Positions 20,709 through 47,144 of a stretch of 64,000 nt of DNA are shown here, piece after piece; within the stretch, counting starts at the first letter, position 1; the number at the start of each line of letters is the position of its first letter. The DNA is taken from contig JAXLQJ010000003.1 of NCBI GenBank assembly GCA_046331705.1, positions 1 through 64,000 on the forward strand, written 5' to 3'. The notes under the pieces were generated by a model. It was not told where the DNA came from, ran no database searches, and saw only the letters and a list, made by a program, of their open reading frames with translations. Position numbers and translations under genes: made by a program. This DNA is from a bacterium. Lineage in GTDB: Bacteria > JADJOY01.

Positions 20709-20814
20709 GCCGAGGCGCCTCGCGCCGCTCGCCGCAGCCGGTAGCGGGCTATCGATACTTGCCTGGCGTGCTACCTGGGCGTCGTGGGGCTTGTCGTCGC
20801 TCGCGCCCACTCCA

Positions 20815-21125
20815 AGACCTCTGAAGTCGTCCACGATCACGCGCTTGGGGTTGGCCCCGCCGCTGATCTCCTGGGTGGGGTTGAAGAGCGGGAAGGCCGA
20901 GGATGCCGGGTTCCCCACACCGATCAGCACCCCGGTGTAGATCGGGTCGTCGTCGTTCACCGTGGCGCCGCGGATGTCGATGGTGCCGGTGCCGCCGTTG
21001 GCGTGCACCTCCACCTCGGTCGAGCCGTTCCCCGGGGCGCGAAGGTTGGCGCTGGCGAGGACGACGTTGGAGGCATCGGACTGGATGTCGACGTTACCCG
21101 ACGCTTCCAGGATCGCGGCCGAGAG
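20815..21125 (-). pseudogene. Coding-like fragment of a beta-rich secreted protein, at the island boundary
   Basis: Stretch AAILEASGNVDIQSDASNVVLASANLRAPGNGSTEVEVHANGG...VIVDDF has protein-like composition and GC-ending codons, but no credible own start or stop. Confidence 0.4.
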
Positions 21126-21169
21126 CGTCACCCGCACCTTCCTGGGGAGGATCGGCATCGCCCGCCGTT

Positions 21170-21186
21170 GGTCCCAGATTGGGACC
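21170..21186. promoter_or_regulatory. Palindromic operator upstream of higB (probable HigA site)
   Basis: GGTCCCA-GAT-TGGGACC perfect 7-bp inverted repeat, 16 nt before the higB GTG. Confidence 0.75.
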
Positions 21187-21202
21187 GTGATATTCATATC
21201 GC

Positions 21203-21502
21203 GTGAGGATCATCGCGCTGAGCACCCTCAAAGCATTCCTCGCGCGAGCTCCTCACGGCGACGCTCGCGATCCAGCGATGGCGTGGTACCGCCAGGTCCG
21301 CGCTGCCGACTGGGCCAACCCCGCCGACCTCAAGCGCGACTTCGGCTCGGCCAGCGTCCTCCGCGATGGTCGGGCCGTGTTCAACATCGCTGGCAACAAG
21401 TACCGCATCGTGGTCTGGATCAACTACCCGTACCGCGTCGTGTACCTGCGGTTCATCGGCACACACCGGGAACACGACGAGATCGACGCGCAAACGATTT
21501 GA
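21203..21502 (+). CDS. higB: Type II TA toxin, HigB family mRNA interferase
   Basis: MRIIALSTLKAF...W..P.DLK.DFGSAS...VFNIAGNKYRIVV.INY....YLRFIGTH.E.D; toxin-first gene order. Confidence 0.93.
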   Translation: MRIIALSTLKAFLARAPHGDARDPAMAWYRQVRAADWANPADLKRDFGSASVLRDGRAVFNIAGNKYRIVVWINYPYRVVYLRFIGTHREHDEIDAQTI

Positions 21503-21515
21503 GGAGCGAAGATCG

Positions 21516-21887
21516 ATGGACCTCCGACCGATCAAGACAAAACGCGACTATCGCCGAACGCTCACCGAGATCGAGGGTCTCATGTGCGCGCGCCGCGGCA
21601 CACCGGAAGGTGACCGACTCGATGTGCTCGTCACCCTGGTCGAAGCTTGGGAAGCGAAGCATTTCCCGATGGATCTTCCGGATCCTGTAGAGGCGATCAA
21701 GTACCGCATGGAGCAACGCGGCCTGACACCTCGCGATCTGGTGCCCTACATCGGAAGCCGCAATCGCGTCTACGAAGTACTGAATCGCAAGCGCTCGCTG
21801 ACGCTCGAGATGGTCCGGCGACTACACACCGGACTCGGCATCCCGGCCGAGTCGTTGATCAAGGCACCTACGAAGCGCGCCGCCTGA
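21516..21887 (+). CDS. higA: Type II TA antitoxin, HigA family (XRE HTH)
   Basis: RPIKTKRDY...GTPEGDRLDVLVTLVEAWE...PDPVEAIKYRMEQRGL...VYEVLNRKRSLTLEM; RBS GAGGAG. Confidence 0.93.
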   Translation: MDLRPIKTKRDYRRTLTEIEGLMCARRGTPEGDRLDVLVTLVEAWEAKHFPMDLPDPVEAIKYRMEQRGLTPRDLVPYIGSRNRVYEVLNRKRSLTLEMVRRLHTGLGIPAESLIKAPTKRAA

Positions 21888-22025
21888 CTTGCGCGCCCTG
21901 CGGTGCGCCGCGGTGGGCGCGGCACTGTGAACGTGAGGGCGCAACGCCGCGGCAGCTCGGCGTGAATCCTCGAGCGATCTCGCGATCTCGCACTCGGCAC
22001 GCGAGGTGCTTCGCGTACGTGCGCC

Positions 22026-22979
22026 ATGGCGCGACCGCTTCGCTGGCTGCGGCCCGACACGGTCTGGTTCGTCACGAACCGAATCCACCAACGCAGGCTG
22101 CTCTTGCGGGGCGACGACGAGTGCAACGCGCTCGTCGGGCTGTGGCTCGCGCGAGCGTTGCGCCGATTCCCCGGCGTGACGCTCTTCGGGTTTGTGAGCA
22201 TGGGCAACCACCTGCACGTGCTCGCCAAGGATACGGGGGGCGACCTCTCCGCATTCATGCACTACCTGGCCACGAACCTGGCGAAGGCCGTCAATCAGCT
22301 CCGCGACCGTGAGGGACACGTCTTCGACCGGCGGTTCTCCGCCGAGCCCGTCCTCGACAAGGAAGCCGAGCTCGGACGGTTGCTCTATCTCGTGACCAAT
22401 CCCGTGAGCGCGGGCCTCGTTCCCGAGAGCTCGGCGTGGCCCGGTGTGCTGCTTTTGGCACGGGAGGGGAAGGAACAAGCGCACACGTTCCGCTGGTGGA
22501 GTCGCCAGCGCTACGAGAACGCGCTGCGCAACGCCGCACGGCTCGGTGCTTTGGGGCACGAAGTGCTCGGCGTGACGGTGAGCCCGGACGATTTCTGGGA
22601 AGAAGAGACCGTCGTCGTCCATCCCCTCGAAGACCTCCACGAGATCGGCATCGAGCCCGAGCGCGTGATCGATCGGGTGCGCAATCGCGAGCGAGCGATC
22701 CACGCCGAGCGCCGCGGCAAGCCATTTCTCGGCGCCGCCACTGTGCTCCGGCAAGACCCGCGCACTCGGCCGAAGCGATCGAGTCGATCGCCGAGGCCAC
22801 TCTGTCACGCGAGCGCCGACCTCGTGCGCAAGACCTTCCGCTCTCTCTACCGAAGCTTCCGTCGAGCGTTCTGGAGTGCCGCCGAGGCGCTCCGCGCCGG
22901 CGAGCTCGACGTTCGCTTCCCGAGCTGGTCGTTCCCGCCGTGGCGGCCGCTGGTACGCGTCGTCGAAGACACCACGTAG
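22026..22979 (+). mobile_element. HUH Y1 transposase, REP-associated tyrosine transposase (RAYT)-like
   Basis: WFVTNR, MGNHLHVL (HUH), GHVFDRRF, YLVTNPVSAGLV (catalytic Tyr, NPV.AG); no tnpB adjacent. Confidence 0.85.
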
Positions 22980-23129
22980 CCGATCGCGCCGCCCGGCGCA
23001 CGCCTGACGCGCTCGCTCATGCCGAGCGCGATCGGTGAGGCATGCCTACTCCGCGACACTGGGCGTGGACGGGATGCGCGTCCGCAGCGCTTGATGTGGC
23101 TCCTCGGGCTTCGAAATCACCGAATCCCG

Positions 23130-23475
23130 GGCAAGAAGCCCTCCGGGCGCGCGATGTCGCACGCCCCCGTGGGTGGCTCCACTTCAAAGGTGTATGGCAC
23201 CGGACGTCCCGGGGCCCACCCCATTCGAGAGCAACACCTGCACACCCACCGGTGCCACGTCCCCGCCAAAGTACGGCAGGTGCGTCAGCGCCAGGTCCGC
23301 GTAGCCGTCGCCGTTGAGATCCCCAAACGCGAGGTCCGTGGGGTAATCGCCCACGGGGATGGGGCAACGTCCGCAGCTTCAAAGGTGTGTGGCACCGAAC
23401 GTCCGCGGCAAGAAGCCCTCCGGGCGCGCGATGTCGCACGCCCCCGTGGGTGGCTCCACTTCAAAGGTGTATGGC
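23130..23475 (+). repeat. 69-bp perfect direct repeat (23130-23198 and 23407-23475)
   Basis: GGCAAGAAGCCCTCCGGGCGCGCGATGTCGCACGCCCCCGTGGGTGGCTCCACTTCAAAGGTGTATGGC occurs twice. Confidence 0.95.
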
Positions 23476-23506
23476 GCCCACTTCGGCCTCAAGGGTGTGT
23501 GGCACC
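23182..23506 (+). repeat. Four copies of a 20-bp REP-like motif CYTCAARGGTGTRTGGCRCC
   Basis: Copies at 23182-23201, 23377-23396, 23459-23478 and 23487-23506; imperfect palindrome GGTG...CACC; directly downstream of the RAYT-like gene. Confidence 0.8.
23214..23365 (-). pseudogene. 152-bp diverged copy of an FG-GAP segment of the adjacent Rhs gene (25274-25425)
   Basis: Ungapped alignment, 9 mismatches counted by eye, mostly third-position; encodes PIPVGDYPTDLAFGDLNGDGYADLALTHLPYFGGDVAPVGVQVLLSNGVG. Confidence 0.92.
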
Positions 23507-23725
23507 CGCTTCTCGCCCCTTCCGACGAAACCACCGCTCGGACGCGCAAAGCACGAGCCGCGAAACGCCAACAGAAACCCCCAGTGACACTAACAGCCAC
23601 ATACTCTTCGACAGTTGGTGCTGAAGCTGGGTCGCAGCCACCACTCCCACCGCCACACCGCACAACGAGGAGATTGGAACCACATATCTATATGCGGTGC
23701 GCGCGCACCAAGGTTGCCTAGTCAT
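23489..23725 (-). CDS. Small putative two-TM protein (possible orphan immunity gene)
   Basis: 78 aa, two hydrophobic segments, lower GC; stop falls inside the last REP-like copy. Confidence 0.35.
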   Translation of the reverse strand: MTRQPWCARTAYRYVVPISSLCGVAVGVVAATQLQHQLSKSMWLLVSLGVSVGVSRLVLCASERWFRRKGREAGATHP

Positions 23726-23852
23726 GCGTTGCGCCTTCGTTGGCAGTCATGCATTCAAAATTATACTTACCCTTGGACCTGCAGACGAAATTTCAGAGGA
23801 CAATAGTGACTATTGTATCTCAAAATGATTGACATCAATTTGGAAAACGAGG

Positions 23853-24254
23853 TCAACCTGACTGGCGCACATCGTCGAGATGCCCTTCAGACGCGTGCGG
23901 CAACCCTGCATCCCGACAGATGCGCCTCCTGCCTTGGCGCACGGCAGCGAACAACAGACAAGGTCCGCGCTCATCCATAGCCGAAGCGAGCACGCGCCAG
24001 GGGACTCTGCGAAATCGAAGATCAACAAAAACAAGAAAGAGATCGAGCAAAACATAGACGACGGAAGCATAGCCAACCGCAGACTCAAGAAAGCGGCACA
24101 CAAGCGCAACATTAGAATTCGACGCCGGGCCGTAGACGAAGTCGCCAATGATCGACAGTGGCACGGTTAGCCCTGCAGCAACAGCGACAACCCATATTGA
24201 GTTGAGGCGCCAGGCTGGAACGCTGATATCGTGTTTAATGTTATCTAAATTCAT
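23853..24254 (-). CDS. Putative membrane immunity protein for the Rhs toxin
   Basis: Starts 2 nt after the Rhs stop, shares its low GC, has two hydrophobic segments. Confidence 0.55.
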   Translation of the reverse strand: MNLDNIKHDISVPAWRLNSIWVVAVAAGLTVPLSIIGDFVYGPASNSNVALVCRFLESAVGYASVVYVLLDLFLVFVDLRFRRVPWRVLASAMDERGPCLLFAAVRQGRRRICRDAGLPHASEGHLDDVRQSG

Positions 24255-24256
24255 AG

Positions 24257-26150
24257 CTATGCCTTACAAGGCTTATCATCAGTGCACTTTGGCGGTCGGT
24301 GCTCAATTCCGCCGGGATCCGTGAAGACTACGCGTCCGCTTGAGGTACAAGATGGAAACTCAAACTTCCAGCAACACGCCTGTTTATCAATATCGTAATT
24401 AATATTGCATTGATTTCTTATAATTGCCACAGCAGCGCACATCGTGAGCGAGCAGGCAAGCGCGCAATCCTTCTTGAGTGGCCCAGCTTTTTTGCATCCG
24501 GCGAGACACTCGGCGCATTGAGCAGCGACGATATTTGCCGTGAGCTTGCAAAGGGCATATTGATCTTCTGCATCACGAAGGCATCCGCGATCACAGCCCT
24601 CAACTTTTATTGTTGTAGGCTCTAAACCGGTGAGGTCCATAGTTGTCAACGGATCGTTCCTGCCATACGTATAAGCTGCTAGCGCCGCAGGTCGCGAAAT
24701 CGGCATCGGCTGTATCGAAGACAACTCCAGCGGATCGAATTGAAGATAGCGACCCACGTCGCCCGCAAACTGTCGCCACCAACTATAGTTCTGCCCACTC
24801 TCCCCATCCTCATACTGCCCCGGGAACCGGAACGCGTTGACCACATCCTCGATCGGCGTCGTGGCCTCCCCGAAGGGCTGGTAGTAGCCCTTCCACACCA
24901 CCAGCCCCGCCTGGTCCGTCATCACCTGCGGCGTCCCCAAGTGGTCGTTGTGGTACCAGTAAGGCCGGTTGTTCGCCACCGTGGACGGTAGCGGAAACGC
25001 CGCCGGCACCACGTCCGTCACCGTGAGCGGGCTCGCCGACGCCACCCGCAGCCCATCCACCCGCTTCCGCGGCGCGGGCCGCTCCCGCGCGAACATCACC
25101 TTCGGACGCGCGCGCTCGTTCGAGGCCACGTTCAGGTAGTTCCGCAGCACCGTCACCTGCGAGGTCGCCACGTCCGCGTCCACCATGTCGTTCAAGCCGT
25201 CGCCGTTCACGTCGGTGATCACCAGGCTGAACGGAGCCCAGCCCGTGAACGTCTCCTCCGGCCCCAGGAACCCGCCCACCCCGTTCGAGAGCAACACCTG
25301 CACACCCACCGGGGCGATGTCGCCATCAAAGTACGGCAGGTGCGTCAGCGCCAGGTCCGCGTAGCCGTCGCCGTTGAGATCCCCGAACGCGAGGTCCGTC
25401 GGGTAATCGCCCACGGGGATGGGGCTGTCGGCGGCGAAGGTACCCGTGCCGTCGTTCAAGAACCGCGACACCCAGCCCGCCGGCGGTGGGTCCTGCGCCA
25501 AGCCGGTCTCGTCGAAATAGAACCCCGAGTTGCCCGTGGCCACGTCTGCGTCGCCGTCGTTGTCCAGATCCGCGATCAGCACCGAGCGCGGCTTGGTGCC
25601 CTGCGCGATCGAGAGCGCGGCGCCAAGCTCCAGCCCGGGGCTCGCCTCGATGCTGCGCACGACCTGCACGGTACCCGAGTCCAGCGCCACCGCGAAGTCC
25701 GTCCGCCCGTCCCCGTCCACATCGCCACCGGCCGCCAGCGCCAGCGCCGGAACGGTCGCCGAGATCACCTTCTTCTTCGAATCCGCGAACGTGCCGTTGC
25801 CGTGCCCGGGGAAGAGCCGGAACACCGTCTCCCCGGTGGCCGCCTGCCCCACCACCGCGAGGTCCGCGTGGCTGTCCCCAGGGGTGAAGAGCCCCGCTGC
25901 CAGCAGGTACGGGGACACCGACTCCGCCGGGTTGAAGACCGTGGGGGCGTCGAACGTGCCGTCGCCATTCCCGTACGCGATCTCGTAGCGCTCGAGCGCC
26001 GGGTTCGGCCACACCAGGTCGGCATTGCCGTCCTCATCGAAGTCCGCCGTCGCCAGCGCGAGCGAAGGCGAGGCACCGAACGAAGCGGACTGCGTGTACG
26101 CCCCTTGGCCGTTGCCGAGGAGCACGGTCACCTGCCCCGACGATGTGTTG
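24257..26150 (-). CDS. 5'-truncated FG-GAP-repeat / Rhs-core polymorphic toxin with Cys-rich C-terminal domain
   Basis: FG-GAP repeats (ADFDEDGNADL, GDVDGDGRTDF, ADLDNDGDADV, GDLNGDGYADL); Rhs core YHNDHLGTPQ...FRFPGQY...GRYLQFDP...YGRNDPLTTMDLTGL; GC drops at about 24790. The ORF runs to ATG 26218 but recognisable sequence starts near 26150. Confidence 0.88.
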
Positions 26151-35687: not shown

Positions 35688-35859
35688 TCTGGCCTCGCGG
35701 TGGTGCGTCGGGGCGGCCACCTCGCGTCGCCCTCGCCCCGCCGCCTCGACCGGCAAACGCCCCTTGCACGAAGCCCCGTGAGCCCCAGACACCGACAGCC
35801 CGTCGATGCCTCGGCACGCGCTCACGGCCGCCAGCTCGCACCGGCACCGCGACGTAGGC

Positions 35860-36466
35860 CGTGGGCCGCGTGGCTCGCCGCCGTCGCGATCGCGGGAGCC
35901 GTCGCCAACGCGCACGCCGCGGCGATCTCGCAGACCGACATCGTCGGCCCGCCCGGGAGCGGTGCGTTCGGCTCCCAGATCGTGCCGCTTCCCAACGGCA
36001 ACGTCGTGGTCACGGACCCGACGTTCAGCGGCGTCGCGAACGGGATCGGCGCCGTCTACCTCTTCGGCGGCAGCACTCAGGATCGCGTGGGCAACTGCGG
36101 CGTCGTGGCGCTCACGAACGGCAACTACGTCGCGCGAGCAGCAGCTGGGACGACGGCGCAACACCGGACGTCGGCGCCGTGACGTGGGTGGACGGCGCGG
36201 CCTCCACGGCGCAGGTCGTGAGCGCCGGCAACTCGCTGACCGGAGCAACTGCCGGCGACATCGTCGGCGCCGGCTACGACACGCTCATCGGCCTCGTCGC
36301 GCTCGCGAACGGCCGTTACGCGGTGGGCAGCGCGTACTGGACCAATCCCGCGGGACCGGTGACCGAGGCCCGCGCCGCCACGCTCGGGGACGGTGACACG
36401 GACACCGTGGGGGTGGTCTCGGCAGCGAACGGCGGGCTCGGCGCATGGACGAAGTCCTTGCCGTGA
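35860..36466 (+). pseudogene. Frameshifted, truncated DUF5650-like repeat secreted protein
   Basis: One frame gives signal peptide + PLPNGNVVVTDP...GAVYLF...VVALTNGNYV; the repeat continues SSSWDDG...GAVTW...NSLTG...ALANGRY in another frame after about 36133. Start approximate. Confidence 0.75.
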
Positions 36467-37364: not shown

Positions 37365-38786
37365 TCAGTCCTTCTCGCAGCCGAGCAGCTGCAGGTAGGG
37401 CAGCCCGGTGCCAGCGGGGTCGGTCACGCCTGAATAGCCAAAGGTGCCGTGGGCGCCGGTATCCCCGTAGCAGCAGCCGCTCACCAGCGCCACGTCGAGG
37501 CTCGGGATCGTCACCTGGCCGCTGAACCCGTGCACGTGCACGCGGTCCTCGCGATTCGCGAGCGCCGGCCCGCCGCGCGTCTCGTAAGGCACGCCGCCCG
37601 GAGGTAAGCCGAGCACGAAGCGGCCTTCGTGCGCGCCCGAGCGGGTCCAGCCCGACGGGCACGCGAGCGCGTTCACGAACGCGAAAGTGCCGCTCGGCAC
37701 CGAGTCGCCCACCACCGCCTGGCCCGCCGGCGGCGGCAGCCGGAAGCTCGCGCGACAGACCAAGAGCTGGAGGTACGGCATCCCGCTCGTCTGCGGCTCG
37801 GTGCGACCGAACGCGTTCGAGTCGTAAACGCCCTTCTTGGCGTGGTTGAAGTTGAGGCCGCCGAGCGCCGCGACCGAGCTCTCGGGAAGCTGAATCGAGG
37901 TTCGCAAGCCGTGCTCGTGGAGGCGATCCTCGCGATTCTCGAGCGCCACCCCCACCGCCGCACCCACGTCGCCTCCCGCTGGCGTCGCCACCAGGAAGCG
38001 CCCGTCGGCGCCGGACATGAGCGAGAAGCCCGCCGGGCAGCTCTGGCGATCGAAGAACATCACCGTGTCGGCGGGATAGGGATGATCATCGACCTCCGGC
38101 AGCGGAGTCGTGACCCGACGCTCGCAGACGAGCTGCTGGATCCGCGGCAGCGCCGCATCGCCGGCGTCGGTGGTGCCCACGAGATCGTAGGCGCCTGCGT
38201 CTCCCAGGCTCGAGTTGCAGCAACCGGTGACCGCGGTGATGCCGGTGCCAGGGACGCTCACGCTGGTCGCGTAGTCGTGATCGTGGACGCGGTCTTCCCC
38301 CTCGGCGAGCGCGTCGCCCACCAGCGCGCCCACGACGGTGCCGTCGGTCTTGCCGACGAGGAAGCGCCCCTTCGCGTCCGTCAGCTCGACCCATCCGGGC
38401 GGGCATTGCGTCCCCGGCAGATACGACACCGTGCCGTCCGGGATCTGCAACGTGTACTCGGGCGTGCGGATCTCGTGGGTGAGCGCGTTCGAGAGCTGGC
38501 CGTGGGCGAGCACCTGGACGATGTAGACGCCGTTCGCTTTGGCGGCCGGCAACGTGGCCTGGATGCGCGCGTCGGCCCAGCTCGTGATGGCGAGGGCGGT
38601 ACCGTCGTACATCACCTGCCCGACCGTGGTGCCGAAGCCGGAGCCCGTGAGGGTGACGAGGGCACCCGCGGGCGCCGGGTTCGGCGCGATCGAGCTCAGG
38701 GTGTGGCAGCCGCTCGCCACCAGGATCGACCAAGCGGCGAGCCAACCCACGCACGCGCCGCGCATCCACCGCTTCTCGTCTCGCAT
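37365..38786 (-). CDS. Lipoprotein: IPT/TIG domain + three phage tail-collar/HxH-like repeats
   Basis: Lipobox ASGC; IPT (VTLTGSGFG...ITSWADARI); 3x P.G...CP.G[WF]...GRF.[VL]...EDR.HxH...P[YR]..L.C. Confidence 0.8.
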   Translation of the reverse strand: MRDEKRWMRGACVGWLAAWSILVASGCHTLSSIAPNPAPAGALVTLTGSGFGTTVGQVMYDGTALAITSWADARIQATLPAAKANGVYIVQVLAHGQLSNALTHEIRTPEYTLQIPDGTVSYLPGTQCPPGWVELTDAKGRFLVGKTDGTVVGALVGDALAEGEDRVHDHDYATSVSVPGTGITAVTGCCNSSLGDAGAYDLVGTTDAGDAALPRIQQLVCERRVTTPLPEVDDHPYPADTVMFFDRQSCPAGFSLMSGADGRFLVATPAGGDVGAAVGVALENREDRLHEHGLRTSIQLPESSVAALGGLNFNHAKKGVYDSNAFGRTEPQTSGMPYLQLLVCRASFRLPPPAGQAVVGDSVPSGTFAFVNALACPSGWTRSGAHEGRFVLGLPPGGVPYETRGGPALANREDRVHVHGFSGQVTIPSLDVALVSGCCYGDTGAHGTFGYSGVTDPAGTGLPYLQLLGCEKD

Positions 38787-38790
38787 GGCC

Positions 38791-40212
38791 TCAGTCCTTC
38801 TCACAACCGAGCAGCGAGAGGTACGGCATCCCCAAGCCGGCGGCGCTGCTGGTGCCCGAATAGCCGAACGTGCCGTTCGCCCCGAACTTGTCGTTGCAGC
38901 AGCCCGGCGCGAGCACGACCTCGCGGTTGGGAACGGTCACGGAGCCGCTGAACGTGTGGGTGTGCTGGCGATCCTCGCCGGGCGCGAGCGGCGCGCCGCC
39001 GCGGGTCTCGTAGGGCACGCCTCCGCCCGCCGGCGGCAGCAATCCCACCGGGAACCGGCCCGCGTGCAAGCCCGAGCGCGTCCAGCCCTCAGGACAGGTA
39101 TCGAGATCGAAGTACGAAAACGTCTTCGACGGCAGCGGATCGCCGGTGATGGGCTCGCCCGCAGGCGGCGCCGGCCGATCGATGGCCTTGCACGCGAGCA
39201 GCTGGACGTAGGGCACGCCCGCGGCGGAGGCGCTGGTGACACCCGAGAAGGTCTTGGTCCCCTTGGGCGCGCGCCCATTGCTGCCGCTCGCCGCGGCCAG
39301 GCTTTGCTGGGGCACCTCGATCGACGCCGAGAACGTGTGCGAGTGGCCGCGGTCCTCGCCACTCGCGAGGGGGGTCCCGACCGTCTCTCCCACGGTTCCG
39401 CCGATCGGCGTGGGCAGCAGGAATCGGCCGTTCGCCTCGCCCATGAGCTGAAAGCCGTCGGGGCATCCTTCGCGATCGAAGAGCACCACCGAGCCGTTCG
39501 GGAAGGCGTGATCGTCGACGGTCGGAGGCGGTGCTTCGACGACCCGCTGACACGCGAGCTGGGCGATCCGCGGCGGACCCGCCGGCGCGGCAGCGGTGGT
39601 GCCGCTCACCGGCTGCGCGCCGTCGCTTCCAACGTCGGTGCAGCAACCCGTGAGCCCCGCGACTCCCGTCGAGCCGATGTCGACGCTGGTCGCGTAGCCG
39701 TGCGCGTGAGTGCGGTCCTCGCCTTGCGCGAGCGGTGCTCCCACCGTGAGCCCCACCTGCGTCCCGTCGGTGCGCCCGACCAGGAAGCGCCCCTGCGCAT
39801 CCACCACCGGCTGCCAGCCGGCGGGACAGCTCGTGCCGGCGTGGAACGCGACCGCGCCATCGGGCACCAACACCTTCCAGGTTCGCGCCGCGATCGTATG
39901 CGTGACGGCGTTCGAGAGCTGACCGGCCACTTGGACCTGGACGGGATACGTGCCGTCCGCCTTGGGATCGGGGAGGGTCGCGTCGATCTGGGTATCCGAC
40001 CAGCTGGTGATCGCGAGCGGCGCGCCGTCGTAGAGCACCTGGCTCGCGCCCTGCGTCGTGCCGAAGCTCGTGCCCGTGAGCACCACCGCATCCCCCGCTT
40101 GCGCGGGATCGGGGGCGATCGATTCGACCGTGGGCGCGCAGCCGGCGGCGAGCCACGCGAGGCACGCGGCGAGAACGTACGAGCGATGCGCGCGATTCGG
40201 GACACGAAGCAT
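38791..40212 (-). CDS. Paralogous lipoprotein: IPT/TIG domain + three tail-collar/HxH-like repeats
   Basis: Lipobox AAGC; same architecture; identical C-terminus LLGCEKD; RBS GAAGGGA. Confidence 0.8.
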   Translation of the reverse strand: MLRVPNRAHRSYVLAACLAWLAAGCAPTVESIAPDPAQAGDAVVLTGTSFGTTQGASQVLYDGAPLAITSWSDTQIDATLPDPKADGTYPVQVQVAGQLSNAVTHTIAARTWKVLVPDGAVAFHAGTSCPAGWQPVVDAQGRFLVGRTDGTQVGLTVGAPLAQGEDRTHAHGYATSVDIGSTGVAGLTGCCTDVGSDGAQPVSGTTAAAPAGPPRIAQLACQRVVEAPPPTVDDHAFPNGSVVLFDREGCPDGFQLMGEANGRFLLPTPIGGTVGETVGTPLASGEDRGHSHTFSASIEVPQQSLAAASGSNGRAPKGTKTFSGVTSASAAGVPYVQLLACKAIDRPAPPAGEPITGDPLPSKTFSYFDLDTCPEGWTRSGLHAGRFPVGLLPPAGGGVPYETRGGAPLAPGEDRQHTHTFSGSVTVPNREVVLAPGCCNDKFGANGTFGYSGTSSAAGLGMPYLSLLGCEKD

Positions 40213-40444
40213 GGTGAGATTCCCTTCCCCTTCAGCGGGCGGCGAGCGGCCGAGAACTCTCCCCACGGACTGGCCCCGAGGGCGCCGGCCCGGCGAGCGA
40301 TACCCAGCGAACGCGTGTGTTTCGATCGTACCATCGCGCCACCGCACGGCGCACCCGCGCCGCCGCGCTCGATGTCAACTACGCTTGCGAATGGTCGACG
40401 TGCGGCGCAGCGAGCGTGCCGCCCGTCCCGCCGTGGAGGCGCGC

Positions 40445-41866
40445 ATGCGCGTGCTGCTGATCATGGCCGATGCCCAGATGCACAAGTTTCATCTGGGTGG
40501 ACGCGTGCGGTCGTCGCGCGAGGCTCCGCTCTCGCTCTCGGTGCTCGCGGCGCTCACCGCCGATCAACCCGAAGTCGAGTACACGTGCGTCGACGAGAGC
40601 GTCGACTCCGTTCCGCTCGACTTCCCCGCCGATCTCGTCGGCATCAGCGTCCTCACCGGCACGGCGCGGCGCTGCTACGCGCTGGCCGACCATTTCCGTC
40701 GCCGCGGCATCCCGGTGGTGCTGGGTGGCGCGCACGTCACGATCCTGCCCGAGGAAGCGGCTCGCTTCGCCGACAGCATCGTGGTGGGCATGGCCGAGCG
40801 CACCTGGCCCGAGCTGATCCGCGACTTCCGCGCCGGCCGCCTAGAGCCCGCCTACCACGAGCCCGCGCCTGCTTCCGAGGAGGAGCGGCTGTGGGCCACC
40901 GGCATCCCCACGCCGCGCTGGGAGCTCATGCGCGAGAGCGGCTACATGATGCCGTACACGGTGCACGCCACCCGCGGCTGCGTGCACACCTGCGATTTCT
41001 GCTCGGTGAGCGGAGTCTGGAAGCGCTACCAGAAGCGACCGGTCGCCGACGTGATCCGCGACATCCGCGCCATCCCGCGCGGCCGTTTCGCGCTCAACGA
41101 CGTGAGCCCCTTCGAGGACCTCGACTACACCAAGGAGCTGCTCACGGCGATGATCCCGCTCGGGAAGACCTGGGGCGGGCTCGCGACCACGCGCATCGTC
41201 GACGACCCGGAAGTCATGGAGCTGCTGCGCAAGAGCGGTTGCCGCTTCCTGCTCATCGGCTTCGAGTCGAGCCAGCAGCGCACGCTCAACACGATCCACA
41301 AGGGCTTCAACCGCGGCGCCAACTACGACGAGGTGATGCGCCGATTGCACGCTGCGGGCATCGTCGTGCAGGGCTGCTTCGTGCTGGGCTTCGACAACGA
41401 CGGCCCCGACTGCTTCCGGCGCACCGTCGACGAGGTTCAGCGACTCAAGATCGACATTCCGCGCTTCTCGCTCTACACGCCCTACCCCGGCACCCAGCTC
41501 TTCGGCCGCCTCGAGAAGGAGGGCCGAATCTTGAGCTACGACTGGGCGGACTACGACACCATGCACGTCGTGTTTCGCCCCAAGCTGATGTCGCCCGCCG
41601 AGCTCTACGAAGGCTTCCGCTGGACCTACCGCCGGACCTTCGCCATCCGCTCCATCCTCGAGCGCACCTTGGCGGTGGGAAAGAACTTTCCGATCGCGTT
41701 CTCGGGCAATCTCACGTACCGGCTCTACGTGAAGCGGCTGATGCGTGCGCGCGGCTTCGAGATGCCCCTGCTCGGACCCGCGCCACCGGTGCCCCACGGC
41801 GGCGCCTCGGACGCGCGCTTCGCCGCCGGCGAGCGCTCCGAGCTTCCAATCGCGCAAGCCGGTTGA
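40445..41866 (+). CDS. B12-binding radical SAM protein
   Basis: VVLGGAHVTILPEE, TRGCVHTCDFC, IGFES, TPYPGT. Confidence 0.93.
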   Translation: MRVLLIMADAQMHKFHLGGRVRSSREAPLSLSVLAALTADQPEVEYTCVDESVDSVPLDFPADLVGISVLTGTARRCYALADHFRRRGIPVVLGGAHVTILPEEAARFADSIVVGMAERTWPELIRDFRAGRLEPAYHEPAPASEEERLWATGIPTPRWELMRESGYMMPYTVHATRGCVHTCDFCSVSGVWKRYQKRPVADVIRDIRAIPRGRFALNDVSPFEDLDYTKELLTAMIPLGKTWGGLATTRIVDDPEVMELLRKSGCRFLLIGFESSQQRTLNTIHKGFNRGANYDEVMRRLHAAGIVVQGCFVLGFDNDGPDCFRRTVDEVQRLKIDIPRFSLYTPYPGTQLFGRLEKEGRILSYDWADYDTMHVVFRPKLMSPAELYEGFRWTYRRTFAIRSILERTLAVGKNFPIAFSGNLTYRLYVKRLMRARGFEMPLLGPAPPVPHGGASDARFAAGERSELPIAQAG

Positions 41867-41905
41867 GCGACGTGGCTCGGCGCCCCGTCGAGCCGAGGAG
41901 GAACG

Positions 41906-43267
41906 ATGCGGATCGCGCTGATTCAGCCCGCGATGGGCCGCGACGGCTCGCGTTTCGTCACGTCGTGGAAGATGGAGCCCTTGAGCATGGCGACCCTCGC
42001 CGCGCTCACTCCCCCGGAGCACGAGGTGGTGTTCTGGGACGATCGCGTCGAGCCCATCCCCTACGACGAGCGCGTGGACCTCGCGGCGATCACGCTGGAG
42101 GCCTACACCGCGCGCCGCGCGTATCAGATCGCCGCGCGCTTCCGGGCGCGCGGCGTGCCCGTGGTCCTCGGTGGCTATCACGCGACGTTCCTCCCCGACG
42201 AGGCCGCCCAGCACGCCGACGCGGTGCTCGTCGGCGAAGCCGAGGACGTGTGGGGCACGATCGTCGCCGACGCGGCACGCGGAGCGCTGGCGCCGCGCTA
42301 CCGCTCGACGGCCCGTCCCTCGCTGCGCGCGCGGCGGCCCGATCGCAGCATCTTCGCCAACAAGCGCTACCTGCCGCTCACGCTGGTCGAGTCGGGGCGC
42401 GGCTGCATGTACGCATGCGATTTCTGCTCGATCTCGGCCTTCTACGGGAAGACCTTCGAAGCGCGGCCGGCCAAGGAGGTCGCCGCGGAGATCGAGGCCA
42501 CCGGTCGCAAGTGGATCTTCCTGGTGGACGACAACGTGTCGATGGACGTCGAGCGAACCAAGGAGCTCTGCCGCGAGCTGATCCCGCTCGGCGTGCGCTG
42601 GTTCAGTCAAGCGACCATCAACACCGGCAACGACCCCGAGCTGCTTCGGCTGCTCGAGAAGAGCGGCTGCGCCGGCATCCTGGTGGGCTTCGAGTCGATC
42701 GACGAGCACAACCTGAAGGCGATGAACAAGACCTTCAACAAGGGGCCGCACCACTACCGCGACGCGCTCGCGGGGCTCAGCGACCACGGCATCAAGATCT
42801 ACGCGACATTCGTGTTCGGCTATGACACCGATCCTCCCGACATCTTCCGGCGTACGTTGGACTTCGCCCTGGAAGAGCGCTTCTTCGTCGCCGCGTTCAA
42901 CCATCTGCAGCCCTTCCCCGGAACGCCGCTCTACCAGCGCTTCGAGCGCGAGGGCCGCCTGCTCCATCCGCGCTGGTGGCTCGAGCCGGGTTACCGCTTC
43001 GGCCAGCTCGCGTATCGCCCGCGGAACCTCTCGCCCGAGGCGCTCTACGACGAGCTCATGAAGACCCGGCGCGAGTTCTACAGCGCGCGCAACATCCTCG
43101 CCCGCGCGCGCAACGTGCGCGCCAACCTCCTCGGCCCGGGAACCGGCTGGCTCCACTTCGTGGTCAACGGGCTGTTGCGGAAAGAGCTCCACGACAAGTG
43201 GGCGACACCCCTCGGCGACCTGAGCGAGCCTTCGCCCGTCGCGGCGTTCCCGGCCCACGCCGCGTGA
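41906..43267 (+). CDS. B12-binding radical SAM protein
   Basis: VVLGGYHATFLPDE, GRGCMYACDFC, FLVDDN, VGFES, QPFPGT; RBS GAGGAGG. Confidence 0.93.
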   Translation: MRIALIQPAMGRDGSRFVTSWKMEPLSMATLAALTPPEHEVVFWDDRVEPIPYDERVDLAAITLEAYTARRAYQIAARFRARGVPVVLGGYHATFLPDEAAQHADAVLVGEAEDVWGTIVADAARGALAPRYRSTARPSLRARRPDRSIFANKRYLPLTLVESGRGCMYACDFCSISAFYGKTFEARPAKEVAAEIEATGRKWIFLVDDNVSMDVERTKELCRELIPLGVRWFSQATINTGNDPELLRLLEKSGCAGILVGFESIDEHNLKAMNKTFNKGPHHYRDALAGLSDHGIKIYATFVFGYDTDPPDIFRRTLDFALEERFFVAAFNHLQPFPGTPLYQRFEREGRLLHPRWWLEPGYRFGQLAYRPRNLSPEALYDELMKTRREFYSARNILARARNVRANLLGPGTGWLHFVVNGLLRKELHDKWATPLGDLSEPSPVAAFPAHAA

Positions 43268-43288: not shown

Positions 43289-44056
43289 TCAGCGGGTCGC
43301 GGACACCAGCGCGAACGGGACGCCGTGCGGATCGAGCGCCTGCACGATCCAGCTTCCGCCCGGCACCTCGTGCGGTCCCATCAGCAGCTGGCCACCCTGG
43401 GCGCGAATCCGTTCGATGGCGGCGTCGATCCCATCGACGCTCACGTAGAAGCCCCACGACGAAACCGGCACGTTCTCGGGCTTGTCCATCATGCCGCCCA
43501 TCTGCACGCCGTCGGCGCCGAAGATCCGGTATTTCCCCATCGGCCCCATGTCCATCAGGTCGAGCGTCTCCCAGCCGAATTGCTCGGCGTAGAAGCGAAA
43601 CGCCGCCTCCTGACCGATGCTCGAGTAGAGCTCGTGCCAGCTCACCACGCCAGGCGTGGTGGGTGGCACCGGGGGCGGCACGTCGTCGCGCGGCGACGGT
43701 GTGAGCAGCTGGAACACCGCGCCGCCTGGATCCGCGACCACGGCGAAGCGGCCGACGTTCGGGATGTCGTCGGGACCATGGTGGAGGGTGCCTCCGGCAG
43801 CGACGATGCGATGGGCGGCGGCGTCCGTGTCGGGCACCGCCACGTAGCCGAGCCACGCCGCTGGCGCCCCCTCGGCCGGCAGCGTCATCATGCCGCCCAC
43901 GCCACGGGAACCCGCCGAGAGGATCGTGTAGCGCATGCCGGGTTGCGCGGCGTCGCTCATCCCCCAACCCACCACCGCGCCGTAGAACGCCTGGGCGGCA
44001 TCGAGGTCGCGCGTCTGAAGCTCGTACCAGAAGAACCTGGGGTGTGTGCCGCTCAT
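43289..44056 (-). CDS. VOC/glyoxalase family protein (two domains)
   Basis: FFWYEL.T.D...AQAFY..VVGW, GRFAVVADPGGA; second domain WHEL...DPHGVPFAL. Confidence 0.93.
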   Translation of the reverse strand: MSGTHPRFFWYELQTRDLDAAQAFYGAVVGWGMSDAAQPGMRYTILSAGSRGVGGMMTLPAEGAPAAWLGYVAVPDTDAAAHRIVAAGGTLHHGPDDIPNVGRFAVVADPGGAVFQLLTPSPRDDVPPPVPPTTPGVVSWHELYSSIGQEAAFRFYAEQFGWETLDLMDMGPMGKYRIFGADGVQMGGMMDKPENVPVSSWGFYVSVDGIDAAIERIRAQGGQLLMGPHEVPGGSWIVQALDPHGVPFALVSATR

Positions 44057-44213
44057 CGTGCCTCCCGTTGGGATACGCGCACGGTCCGTGGGCCGATGGC
44101 GGCCCGCGCGCTCGTCTGATTCGCCAAGCTGGCCGCGCCGATCTCGCTCGTCCAGCGCGGGTGATCGAGCGACGCGCAGCGCACGCGACGTTCACCCGTG
44201 CGGCGCGCTGCGG

Positions 44214-45524
44214 TCACGGCAGGGCCGCCGTGGCCCCCGCCGGAAAGGTCGGCGGGATGGGTCCTGGATTCGTGATGCCGAGGGCGAAGAGCTGGGCCAT
44301 CGCGGCGAGGCCCAGCTCGTCGACCTCCGCGGGATCGTACGTGCCCGCGCTCTCGATCGCCGCGAGCCGCCGATCCAGCCCCACGAGGGACTCACGCTGC
44401 GAACGGCCGAGATCGGGCAGCGCCTCCAGCACGCCACGGATCGGCGTTCGAAACGCCGCGAGATCGGCGGCGGCGATCGGTGGCGATTCCACGAACGGGT
44501 AACGCTCCGTGTCGTTGGCCACCCCATCGACGAGCGCCGCCAGCACGCGCACCGACTCGAGCAGCACCTCGTACTCGATCGTGGCGGGCTCGTCGGTGAT
44601 CTGGTGATAGAAGCTGAAACCCGGGTTGACGAACCAGACCGCGGGAAAGCCCTCGTTCAGGAACGGATCGTGATCGCTCGCGAACGGAGGGTGGGGGATC
44701 AGATCCCGATGCGCGATCAAGACGTCGTGGCTGCCGAGACGCGCACGGCTCGCCTCCACGCGCTCGCGCAGCGCCGGGCTGTGCTCGAGGCCGAAGAGCG
44801 CGGTGAACGCGTAGCCCGGCACGAGCCCGCGACCGATGGGATCGAGCGAGATGCCGAGCACGATGCCGTCGCGCGGCACGGTGGGATTCTTGGCGAAGGC
44901 GCGCGCGCCGCGCAGCCCCGACTCCTCTTCGTCGGTGATCAGCCACACCACGGTGCGCGCGGGTGCGTAGCCGCTGGCCCGCAGCGCGCGCGCCAGCTCC
45001 AGCATGGTGGCCACACCCGCCACGTCGTCGTACGCACCGTTGAACACGTGCTGGAACGAATCGCGACCGAGGTGGTCGTAATGCGCCATCACCACCACCG
45101 ACTCCTCGCGATGATCGGGATCGCTGCCGAGCAGCAATCCGACGACGTCGTGGCCCGTGGGATACGGGTAGAGGTACCGGGGATGGGGCTCGGAGGGATA
45201 GAGGTAGAGATAGCTCGTGCCGTCGACGCCGCCGCGCTCCACCTGAGCCCGCGACAGCGCATCGATCACGTAGTCGCGGGCGCGGCGATGCCCCGCGCTG
45301 CCTGGGAGCCGCCCGTCGGTATCGTCGCTGGCGAGCGCCTCGACGTGGGCGCGCAGACTCTCCGCGGAGATCGAGGCGAGCGCCTGTCGCAGCGCACGCC
45401 CACGCTGCTGCTCCAGCGTCTCGCGCCCGCCACCCGAGCAGCCCACGGCGAGCACCACGGCCAGCACCGCCCCAGCGCCACCGCGCTGCGCGCGCCCGGC
45501 GGCATCCCTCCGAAGGAGTCGCAT
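44214..45524 (-). CDS. M28 family metallopeptidase lipoprotein
   Basis: Lipobox AVGC; LASDDTDGR, MAHYDHLG, NGAYDD..GVA, EESGLRG, SDH, YHQITD. Confidence 0.9.
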   Translation of the reverse strand: MRLLRRDAAGRAQRGGAGAVLAVVLAVGCSGGGRETLEQQRGRALRQALASISAESLRAHVEALASDDTDGRLPGSAGHRRARDYVIDALSRAQVERGGVDGTSYLYLYPSEPHPRYLYPYPTGHDVVGLLLGSDPDHREESVVVMAHYDHLGRDSFQHVFNGAYDDVAGVATMLELARALRASGYAPARTVVWLITDEEESGLRGARAFAKNPTVPRDGIVLGISLDPIGRGLVPGYAFTALFGLEHSPALRERVEASRARLGSHDVLIAHRDLIPHPPFASDHDPFLNEGFPAVWFVNPGFSFYHQITDEPATIEYEVLLESVRVLAALVDGVANDTERYPFVESPPIAAADLAAFRTPIRGVLEALPDLGRSQRESLVGLDRRLAAIESAGTYDPAEVDELGLAAMAQLFALGITNPGPIPPTFPAGATAALP

Positions 45525-45608
45525 GGGCGCAGGATTCAATCGATCCACCCGAGCGGTCAAGGCTCGCTCGGGGACCGCAGACCGCGGGCAACGGCGTACC
45601 ACGGCACG

Positions 45609-47144
45609 CTGCGGTGCGCGCGCCGGCTGCCGCTCGTGCTCGCGGCGTACGTTGCGTGGGCGACGAGCGCGGCCGGTTGCGGCGGCGATTCGCTCCCAGC
45701 GCTCGTACCGGGCGCACCGTCGGTGCTGCACGTCGCGGACGCGCGCATTCGCGACGAGCAGGACCGCACCGTGCTGCTGCGCGGCCCCGCGGTGATCGGT
45801 CTCGGCGACTACTTCCAGGGCAACCCCGAGGTTCCGTCTTCCGCCGGCGTGAGCGAGCGCGACCTCGACCAGATCGCGGCGCTCGGGATGAGCGCGATCC
45901 GGTTGCTCGTTCACTGGAGCGCCCTCGAGCCCGCTCGCGGCACGTTCAGCGAGGCCTACCTGGAGCGCGTTCGACGCGTGGTCGACTGGGCGCGCGCGCG
46001 GGGGCTCTACGTGATCCTCGACATGCACCAGGACGCATGGGGGAAATTCGTGAACACGGCGCCGGACGAGGTCTGCCCCGAGCCGTTCGCGCCCAACCAG
46101 GGCTGGGACGGCGCTCCCGAGTGGGCGACCCTCACCGACGGCAAATGGCGCTGCCGCTTCCAGACGCGCGAGCTTTCCCCGGCGGTCATGACCGCGTGGG
46201 AGAGCTTCTGGAACGACCGCGACGGCATCCAGCAGGAGCTCGTCGACACCTGGGCGTGGCTCGCGCGGAGCTTCCGCGACGATCCCACGGTGGCGGGCTA
46301 CGACCTGCTCAACGAGCCCAACTGGGGACTCGACTACTCGTACACCGTGCTGTCGCGAAAGCCGGCGTTCCAAGCGCGTGCGTTGGCCGCGATCCGCTCG
46401 GCCGAGCGTCCGGAGCTGCGCAAGATCGTGTTCTTCGAGCCCACGGCGGTGTGGTCGGCGGTGCCGACCGAGACTCCGGTGCCCTTCACCGACGACGACT
46501 CGACCGTCTTCGCGCCGCACATCTACGCCGAGTCGATCACCGCCGATCTGGCCTTCTTCCCGGAACCCGTCTTCTTGTTGCGCGCGAGCTTCGAGGAGGC
46601 GAGGCGCGAGGCCGCGACGTACGGCACCACGTTCTGGTCCGGCGAGTGGGGCTGGTTCGGCGATCCGGCGAGCTCGTACACCGCGCGCTACGCCGCGCTC
46701 GAGGACGAGTTCCAGGTCGGCGGCGCGTGGTGGTCGTGGCGCGGCGCCTGCGGCGACCCCCATGCGGTGTCGTGGCCGAGCGGTGCGTACGGCGACTTCA
46801 ACGGCAACCTGCTGCTGAGCCGCTGCAAGGATCCGGCGAATCTCGCCGGCATCGAGGTCGGGCTCGTCGAGCCGAACGCGCGGGTGCTGTCGCGGCCGTA
46901 TCCGCGCCGCTTCCCGGGGCGCATCACCTTCACCTCCGACCCTGCGACGCGGCGCCTGGACCTGCGCGGCGAATCCCACGCCGGCGAGGCGCCCTTCGAG
47001 GTGTGGATCCCGGGCGACGGCGAGCCGGCGCTGACGCTCGCGGGCCTCGCTGCCGAGCCCCTCGAGCGCGTCGCGGGCGGCTGGATCCTGCGCGCGCGCC
47101 CCACGGCCGACACGATCACGCTCGTGGCCGTGGGCAGCGACTGA
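45609..47144 (+). CDS. GH5 endoglycoceramidase-like lipoprotein
   Basis: IRLLVHWSALEP, VILDMHQD, DGAPEWAT, GYDLLNEP, FAPHIY, GEWG, SRPYP C-terminal domain; start uncertain (45609-45636). Confidence 0.85.
   Translation: MRCARRLPLVLAAYVAWATSAAGCGGDSLPALVPGAPSVLHVADARIRDEQDRTVLLRGPAVIGLGDYFQGNPEVPSSAGVSERDLDQIAALGMSAIRLLVHWSALEPARGTFSEAYLERVRRVVDWARARGLYVILDMHQDAWGKFVNTAPDEVCPEPFAPNQGWDGAPEWATLTDGKWRCRFQTRELSPAVMTAWESFWNDRDGIQQELVDTWAWLARSFRDDPTVAGYDLLNEPNWGLDYSYTVLSRKPAFQARALAAIRSAERPELRKIVFFEPTAVWSAVPTETPVPFTDDDSTVFAPHIYAESITADLAFFPEPVFLLRASFEEARREAATYGTTFWSGEWGWFGDPASSYTARYAALEDEFQVGGAWWSWRGACGDPHAVSWPSGAYGDFNGNLLLSRCKDPANLAGIEVGLVEPNARVLSRPYPRRFPGRITFTSDPATRRLDLRGESHAGEAPFEVWIPGDGEPALTLAGLAAEPLERVAGGWILRARPTADTITLVAVGSD

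Follow-up and report, generated by a model that had tools for sequence, protein, structure and literature searches.

The window analysed here is a 64,000-nucleotide stretch of bacterial DNA (GTDB lineage Bacteria; JADJOY01), comprising positions 1 to 64,000 of contig JAXLQJ010000003.1 in assembly GCA_046331705.1, with a G+C content of about 70%. Its minus strand carries two tandem genes, separated by a gap of 4 nt, for the lipoproteins P0002 and P0001. An earlier inspection of the letters and open reading frames (ORFs) alone, called the sequence-only reading below, had proposed that each protein folds as a single-chain pseudo-trimer resembling the tip of a phage tail fibre. Our follow-up favours that proposal. 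The features of the pair are as follows.

38791..40212, minus strand: gene for lipoprotein P0002, 473 aa from an ATG start, with a lipobox-containing signal, a TIG domain and repeats R1-R2-R3; the Shine-Dalgarno-like sequence GAAGGGGAAGGGA lies upstream of the ATG
40138..40212, minus strand: P0002 signal peptide with the lipobox cysteine Cys25 at its end (LAAG↓C), read directly from the sequence; the cysteine is kept in orthologues
39895..40134, minus strand: P0002 IPT/TIG domain, residues 27–106 (PF01833, E 7.5e-10; VIA-align Z 13.4 to 1qhp_A)
39544..39879, minus strand: P0002 repeat R1, with HAH at 39700–39708
39184..39519, minus strand: P0002 repeat R2, with HSH at 39337–39345
38794..39153, minus strand: P0002 repeat R3, with HTH at 38956–38964
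37365..38786, minus strand: P0001 lipoprotein gene; counted from the ATG at 38786 it encodes 473 aa, and its ORF reaches up to a GTG at 38804
38706..38786, minus strand: P0001 signal peptide with the lipobox cysteine at its end (VASG↓C), read from the sequence
38478..38699, minus strand: P0001 IPT/TIG domain, residues 36–109 (PF01833, E 4.4e-8)
38118..38456, minus strand: P0001 repeat R1, with HDH at 38277–38285
37749..38093, minus strand: P0001 repeat R2, with HEH at 37911–37919
37368..37718, minus strand: P0001 repeat R3, with HVH at 37530–37538

The P0001 ORF (37365–38804, minus strand) encodes 479 aa if counted from the GTG at 38804, but its real start is likely the ATG at 38786, giving 473 aa, because the homologue P0006 starts there and a GAAGGA lies 9 nt upstream. 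A purine-rich, Shine-Dalgarno-like sequence precedes both genes, and their products share 53% identity and an identical architecture. Each N-terminus is basic, then hydrophobic, and ends in LAAG↓C (P0002) or VASG↓C (P0001). The lipobox cysteine is kept in six aligned orthologues, and position −3 is Ala in both proteins rather than the classical Leu. With a lipobox and an invariant cysteine, P0002 and P0001 classify as bacterial lipoproteins as far as sequence can tell. The domain that follows belongs to the IPT/TIG family, with PF01833 scoring 39.1 and 33.5 bits in the pair against a cut-off of 20.9, and structural alignment with VIA-align places that of P0002 on 1qhp_A at Z 13.4 (root-mean-square deviation, rmsd, 1.9 Å over 81 residues).

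The remainder of each protein consists of repeats of about 113 aa, each with a conserved cysteine pair and one HxH motif. We counted three HxH, three GRF and three CPxG[WF] motifs in each protein, and no more. The HxH motifs read HAH, HSH and HTH at residues 169, 290 and 417 of P0002, and HDH, HEH and HVH at residues 174, 296 and 423 of P0001. The sequence-only reading had named exactly these triplets and had described each protein as a lipobox, an IPT/TIG domain and exactly three repeats, all of which the signal reading, PF01833 and the motif counts bear out. Its repeat motif also holds as described, save that repeat 1 of both proteins ends PRI..L.C and not PY..L.C. The six repeats of the pair give a nearly gap-free alignment and match one another by BLASTP at 34–60% identity (E 1e-14 to 8e-49), far beyond chance. 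Similarity is highest between repeats that occupy corresponding positions in the two proteins (48–60% identity, versus 34–42% between different positions), and the triplication therefore predates the gene duplication.

Among 400 aligned repeats, the first histidine of HxH is kept in 397 and the second in 395; the E, D and R that precede them survive less often, in 249, 153 and 241 repeats. All three HxH motifs are intact in 84 of 88 three-repeat proteins, and the first and last cysteine of every repeat in 78 of the 88. In PMC6116203 (also PMC11705849), three HxH motifs are described as forming octahedral six-His Fe or Zn sites in T4 gp37 and gp12, P2 gpV and pyocin fibres. By analogy, a site built of histidines alone would match these fibre sites and would match a His-plus-carboxylate enzyme site poorly. 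Insertions in homologues concentrate in loops about 20 residues past each HxH, in weak agreement with a distal face that varies. The gp37 tip has a chain that goes out and returns, with both ends side by side; this geometry would explain both the cysteine pair and the easy joining of units by linkers of 8–12 residues.

Structure prediction points to a compact three-part assembly. AlphaFold2 modelling of P0002 residues 108–473 with 71 three-repeat homologues gave a predicted local distance difference test score (pLDDT) of 96.4 and a predicted template-modelling score (pTM) of 0.90; all five models lay between 96.0 and 96.4, linkers included. A full-length model from 13 sequences reached a best pLDDT of 77.4 and a pTM of 0.63, its five models spanning 42.8–77.4. 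The three-repeat region is thus predicted as a single rigid body, and on one point the AlphaFold check that the sequence-only reading had suggested came out in its favour: the repeats are modelled as one body and not as independent beads.

Comparison of the repeat model with 48,161 representative PDB chains by VIA-align returned four chains at Z≥2, and all four are tail fibres (Z 2.0–2.6, rmsd 3.8–5.3 Å; typical best Z values of the method are 7–8). They are the tail fibre of Pseudomonas phage Pa223 (Z 2.6), a Photorhabdus contractile-injection-system fibre (Z 2.1), the tail fibre of cyanophage A-1(L) (Z 2.1, 22% identity) and Bizionia C24 (6ov6; Z 2.0, rmsd 4.7 Å, 17% identity). These matches are weak and carry weight only because no other chain matched. 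Two of them are confined to a single repeat, which aligns to one chain of a trimer; in C24 one chain aligns to R1 (model residues 3–118) over 106 residues, although C24, unlike the window's proteins, is a homotrimer-type phage protein and the match is weak. C24 comes from a prophage of Bizionia argentinensis and is called a putative receptor-binding tip of a long tail fibre in PMC11821841, which cites Pellizza 2020. With the full-length model, Foldseek and VIA-align found TIG matches only, and, for the repeat model, a VIA-align re-check of 989 chains from the Foldseek search of the PDB yielded none at Z≥2; the rows for CotA laccase and a single-chain APRIL-BAFF trimer in the Foldseek search of the PDB fell away as noise in that re-check. 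Cupin, C1q/TNF jelly-roll and beta-propeller folds were likewise dropped, as none was among the matches to the 48,161 chains, which is weak evidence.

Searches of viral collections connect the repeats with virion proteins. A hidden Markov model (HMM) of the window's repeats matches single-repeat ORFs of 209–310 aa on three IMG/VR contigs (E 5e-21 to 9e-20); two of the three place the ORF behind the major head protein and a tail protein, and one of these two has an endolysin right after it. The family member P0117 matches the tail-fibre family phrog_8469 in three stretches (E 7e-38) and the tail-collar family phrog_31611 (E 1e-23), and P0191, a distant relative with a single repeat, matches Gp10_C (PF21939) at 24.6 bits (E 5.5e-5), under the 27-bit cut-off. 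A Foldseek search of BFVD found Pas28 (E 7e-9) and Pas29 (E 7e-7) of Actinoplanes phage phiAsp2 and an Aeromonas phage tail fibre (E 2e-3). The annotation of Pas29 names HXHY motifs and a possible role in recognising receptors, and the window-repeat HMM matches Pas28 and Pas29 at about 4e-9 each, in two to three stretches per protein. The nearest neighbours in the ESM Atlas are viral clusters including Gp10_C and Collar (0.88–0.90 overall, 0.88–0.89 for these two), which we take as a lead only. Given the HMM, PHROG and Foldseek/BFVD links, we conclude from sequence and profile comparison that the repeat module is homologous to fibre-type virion proteins, and the pair is related to such proteins at the level of sequence and profile. 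The collar and fibre similarity expected by the sequence-only reading was found in the HMM, PHROG and Foldseek/BFVD searches and, weakly, in the four tail fibres of the VIA-align search; the part that failed is the Pfam Collar match.

In the phiAsp2 genome (AY576796), positions 19272–25990 encode Pas28 and Pas29, each with 12 HxH motifs, grouped by fours into three sets at a spacing of about 140 aa. From this layout, Pas28 and Pas29 may themselves be single-chain three-unit fibre tips.

The repeat family is large. Searching 1.84 billion representative proteins with the repeat profile (hmmsearch) gave 2,562 protein clusters at E≤1e-3 and 1,187 at E≤1e-10; the same kind of search against PDB sequences gave 0 matches at E≤10. 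Most homologues have a signal peptide or lipobox, and the family is mostly chromosomal with ordinary secretion signals. Full-text literature searches, whose coverage leaves most subscription journals outside, found no description of the repeat family or of single-chain fibre tips.

We surveyed the unit count in 173 proteins. Three full units are present in 88 and two in 78; seven have fewer full-length units, being fragments or long-insert forms, and none has four or more. Proteins listed with 4–6 matched stretches turned out to hold three HxH-bearing units broken up by insertions. A four-unit protein would score high enough to be listed, and the ceiling of three therefore looks real.

The two-repeat proteins have a counterpart. 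With a narrower alignment built from two-repeat proteins we retrieved 13 loci from other phyla, in genomes labelled Vicinamibacteria, Ca. Angelobacter, Acetobacteraceae, Endozoicomonas (2), Thiohalomonadaceae, Chromatiales, Azospira oryzae, another Gammaproteobacterium, Myxococcales/Deltaproteobacteria (3) and, in one metagenome-assembled genome (MAG), Mycobacteriaceae. Twelve of the 13, which come from Acidobacteriota, Alpha-, Beta- and Gammaproteobacteria and Myxococcales, have a one-repeat ORF immediately upstream of the two-repeat ORF, each of the two with a separate signal peptide; in L039, one of the 12, the second gene has an interrupted frame. A single three-repeat ORF makes up the 13th (L041, Myxococcales). 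We typed these units with position-specific HMMs made from 80 three-repeat proteins, leaving out P0001–P0008, the window's own clade. The single ORF is R1 in all 12 split loci and the pair is R2 then R3 in all 12, as it is in 66 of 68 two-repeat database proteins; P0002 and P0001 both type as R1-R2-R3. Repeat number is thus not free, as the sequence-only reading had anticipated: proteins never exceed three units, and at the split loci two-repeat proteins stand beside a one-repeat gene in 12 of 12. A total and identities that stay fixed through gene fusion and fission are what a closed three-part assembly predicts and an open array of beads does not. None of the three outcomes that the sequence-only reading had named as grounds for abandoning it (independent beads with distant HxH motifs, no collar similarity, freely varying repeat number) was observed.

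The split form allows the contact between units to be predicted. For the R2R3 and R1 proteins of Azospira oryzae (recorded strain DSM 21223, L038), complex prediction gave a score of 0.91, against 0.00 for the best of three controls; this mark is reached by 116 of 157 solved complexes and by 2 of 215 mismatched pairs. Contact agreement between runs is 98% or more, the pLDDT of R1, the partner in the prediction, is at least 91, and the interface has 462–474 contacts; nearly every R1 residue contacts both R2 and R3. Strands that correspond to each other in different repeats are in contact (for example R1 12–13 with R2 15–16, and R1 37–38 with R2 35–36), as would be expected near a symmetry axis in such a model. 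Five of the six histidines are among the interface residues, namely H61 and H63 of R1, H64 of R2, and H182 and H184 of R3. The split parts are predicted to interlock.

Several relatives contain only one repeat. P0182, P0184, P0185, P0187, P0190 and P0191 have an N-terminal membrane anchor, pilin-like in P0191, and several extra HxH motifs beyond the conserved one. Some single-repeat relatives are cellular and others (L044–L046) lie in phage structural modules. Typing of the membrane-anchored single-repeat proteins with long HxH strings shows no positional preference, and from their sequences the single-repeat relatives look like a homotrimeric form of the module. A metagenome scan with the single-repeat protein P0175 found no relative.

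A further gene accompanies the split form. Seven of the split loci have, after the R1 and R2R3 genes and on the same strand, a gene for a secreted protein of about 950–1,180 aa, at the following positions.

Large secreted neighbour: L034:1963-5496, L035:4810-8280, L036:6170-9691, L037:5189-8659, L038:6268-9765, L039:6017-8872, L043:6247-9717

The seven loci belong to Gamma- and Betaproteobacteria and to one MAG with an odd label. Their copies of the protein share 51–90% identity, and searches of Pfam, NCBIfam and PDB sequences matched none of them, save for a weak FG-GAP match in L039. One query did not find this protein in the window's genome. Judging from its conserved position, the large secreted neighbour could be a partner of the triad.

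Taken as a whole, P0002 and P0001 are best explained as envelope-anchored lipoproteins in which a TIG stalk carries a single-chain pseudo-trimer of the fibre-tip-like modules R1, R2 and R3; we put the probability of this explanation at about 0.65. The pseudo-trimer reading of the three-repeat region is itself well supported as a prediction. The TIG stalk on its lipid anchor would hold three diverged copies around a common core, in the manner of three identical fibre chains, with each repeat closed by a putative disulfide between its first and last cysteine. The three HxH pairs would meet in the core, where the six histidines could bind one structural Fe or Zn ion. The distal loops would combine into one face, asymmetric because the three copies differ. 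That face might bind a ligand outside the cell, with a surface glycan or a component of another cell's envelope as the likeliest candidates, and the two paralogues would then offer two specificities. The descent of the module from phage to cell, the single six-His metal site and the adhesin or receptor role are inferences.

A number of results pull the other way. The one-body reading comes from the confidence scores of the models, and the pseudo-threefold geometry and the meeting of the six histidines are inferred. Foldseek found nothing in the PDB for the repeat model (best E 0.03, with a template-modelling score of 0.05), and the matches to solved fibres are weak. In scans of P0002 and P0001, the repeats stayed without a Pfam, NCBIfam or PHROG match, neither protein matches Gp10_C, and neither matches Collar (PF07484) at E≤1; tblastn of P0002 against 50,697 phage records also returned nothing. 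The Azospira score of 0.91 comes from a run with our own alignments and with a zinc ion that the calibration lacked, and from a homologous pair 35–42% identical to the window's protein; the predictor may, moreover, recall solved trimeric fibres. Typing has its exceptions: P0122 and P0136, two complete-looking two-repeat lipoproteins, are R1+R2 (2 of 68) with no third unit found, and the fused locus L041 types irregularly. Finally, both genes are matched at ≥99% by a few contigs of 150–270 nt from four metatranscriptome libraries, covering parts of the genes only, which is compatible with expression and could also reflect DNA carried over into the libraries.

The same data can be read in other ways. 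The three-part body could be real and its HxH pairs could nonetheless act separately, with one metal per repeat or with catalytic histidines, which would make the proteins enzymes or metal-capturing or metal-sensing lipoproteins. In favour of this, no other feature of the family is as conserved as HxH, and metal enzymes conserve HxH as well; in the Azospira complex, R2 H62, one of the six histidines, is not among the named interface residues. Against separate sites, E, D and R beside HxH are so poorly kept that a His-plus-carboxylate site in each repeat is unlikely, the inter-repeat interface of the split homologue includes five of the six histidines, and those relatives whose role is known are fibres that bear axial His6 sites (PMC6116203). 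The lack of cupin or other metalloenzyme folds among the 48,161 chains adds weak evidence in the same direction, and on balance we regard separate sites as unlikely. A somewhat less probable explanation still keeps the fibre-tip fold and assigns it to conflict with phages or neighbouring cells, as a receptor decoy or as the targeting part of a larger secreted complex. Homology of the module to phage virion proteins would suit such a mimic, as would the secreted protein of about 950–1,180 aa without a known family that comes after the pair in seven split loci; the conservation of this large protein behind the split pair suggests that the triad works with a partner there. Yet the one query made did not find the partner in the window's genome, the scanned neighbours include no defence or phage genes (no PADLOC scan was made), and the family is very large, mainly chromosomal and equipped with ordinary secretion signals.

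We consider it very improbable that the repeats are separate beads on a string and that their likeness to fibres is a matter of chance motifs. The uneven first full-length model (13 sequences, pLDDT 42.8–77.4) and the low Z to solved fibres would be natural for beads. Against beads stand the pTM of 0.90 reached with 71 sequences, a unit total that stays at three with each position keeping its identity, the score of 0.91 for the split pair (controls 0.00) and HMM links to phage proteins at 1e-20 and 7e-38.

The proposed assembly can be set against known systems. It shares the HxH motif with T4 gp37 and gp12 and with the tips of R-type pyocin fibres (PMC6116203), and in both cases three units make one body, in the window's module by prediction. 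The fibres of phages and pyocins are homotrimers of one long chain within a virion, whereas the window's module would consist of three differing units in one chain, or of R1 plus R2R3 in the split form; it also has one HxH per unit, a conserved cysteine pair and a place on a cellular lipoprotein, and its six-His metal site is putative. Pas28 and Pas29 of phiAsp2 (AY576796), the best Foldseek matches, come closest in that they too look like three units per chain. They differ from the window's proteins in belonging to a phage tail region, in their length (936 and 1,291 aa), in their longer units with four HxH motifs and in lacking a lipobox and TIG domain, and their structures are predicted. The motif order P.G(W)...GR...G...HxH of the window resembles the Collar consensus, but the segment from P.GW to GR is much shorter in the window than in Pfam Collar or Gp10_C. 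Bacteroidota surface glycan-binding proteins and SusE/F-like lipoproteins share with the pair the lipoprotein signal, the TIG stalk and a distal binding domain; the window's TIG domain aligns to 3hrp_A at Z 11.9 and to 7k44_A at Z 9.1. Here the likeness is limited to the stalk. The distal module has no relation to theirs, and the pair is not flanked by genes for polysaccharide utilisation.

Phage fibre tips are textbook examples of intertwined homotrimers. They are hard to express and often need the aid of chaperones because three chains must fold together. If the window's proteins fold as proposed, their broken threefold symmetry would turn three equal binding sites into one unique face, and encoding the tip in one chain, or in a fixed one-plus-two form, would show symmetry breaking by triplication, fusion and fission. 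Structural biologists would gain a self-contained form of the fibre-tip fold, and about 2,500 sequence clusters of secreted bacterial proteins would join a family that no library names yet. A broader generalisation is tentative, and we hold it at less than even odds: a widespread, unnamed secreted family would have converted the homotrimeric tip into an obligate R1/R2/R3 triad, with one shared six-His site and three disulfides, for single-site recognition of surfaces or cells, and phages like phiAsp2 may also use the single-chain arrangement. The split version, in a contig recorded as Azospira oryzae DSM 21223, should make co-purification, metal content and binding directly testable there.

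The surroundings of the pair are those of a cellular chromosome. We scanned 11 neighbouring ORFs between 27.7 and 47.1 kb and found cellular Pfam families or none, and no phage family, in keeping with the claim of the sequence-only reading that no phage genes are nearby. The neighbours include VOC/glyoxalase, a GH5 protein, a cytidylate-kinase-like protein, DUF5650 repeats, a papain-like protein and adenylate-cyclase/AAA genes. With no phage family among these 11 ORFs and with the pair and its adjoining radical SAM genes conserved together in same-genus genomes, the pair does not qualify as part of a virion or tailocin. Throughout the 8.2-Mb genome the repeats are confined to these six, and the Collar domain (PF07484) was not found anywhere in it. 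The phylum comprises six species-level genomes in the collection; the pair is present in all four other genomes of the genus and was not found in the sole genome of the other genus, which is recorded as 100% complete. DNA of the window recurs in metagenomes of activated sludge and wastewater from 13 studies.

The adjoining genes, at 40430–43267 on the plus strand and divergent from the lipoprotein pair, encode two B12-binding radical SAM proteins (PF02310, PF04055, DUF4070). The pair and both radical SAM genes occur together in two same-genus genomes (G002 and G005), with a different second flank in G002. In the Myxococcales locus L041, too, there is a radical SAM/SPASM gene, two genes upstream of the fused triad. 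From this gene order, a functional link between the radical SAM genes and the lipoproteins is possible. About 4 kb from the pair, at 44046–47144 on the plus strand, is a 1,032-aa ORF with a GH5 cellulase domain. On the other side, two overlapping plus-strand frames at 35700–36182 and 35861–36466 both resemble parts of one repeat protein, which may indicate a frameshift or a broken gene; the frame at 35861–36466 matches DUF5650 (E 7e-19).

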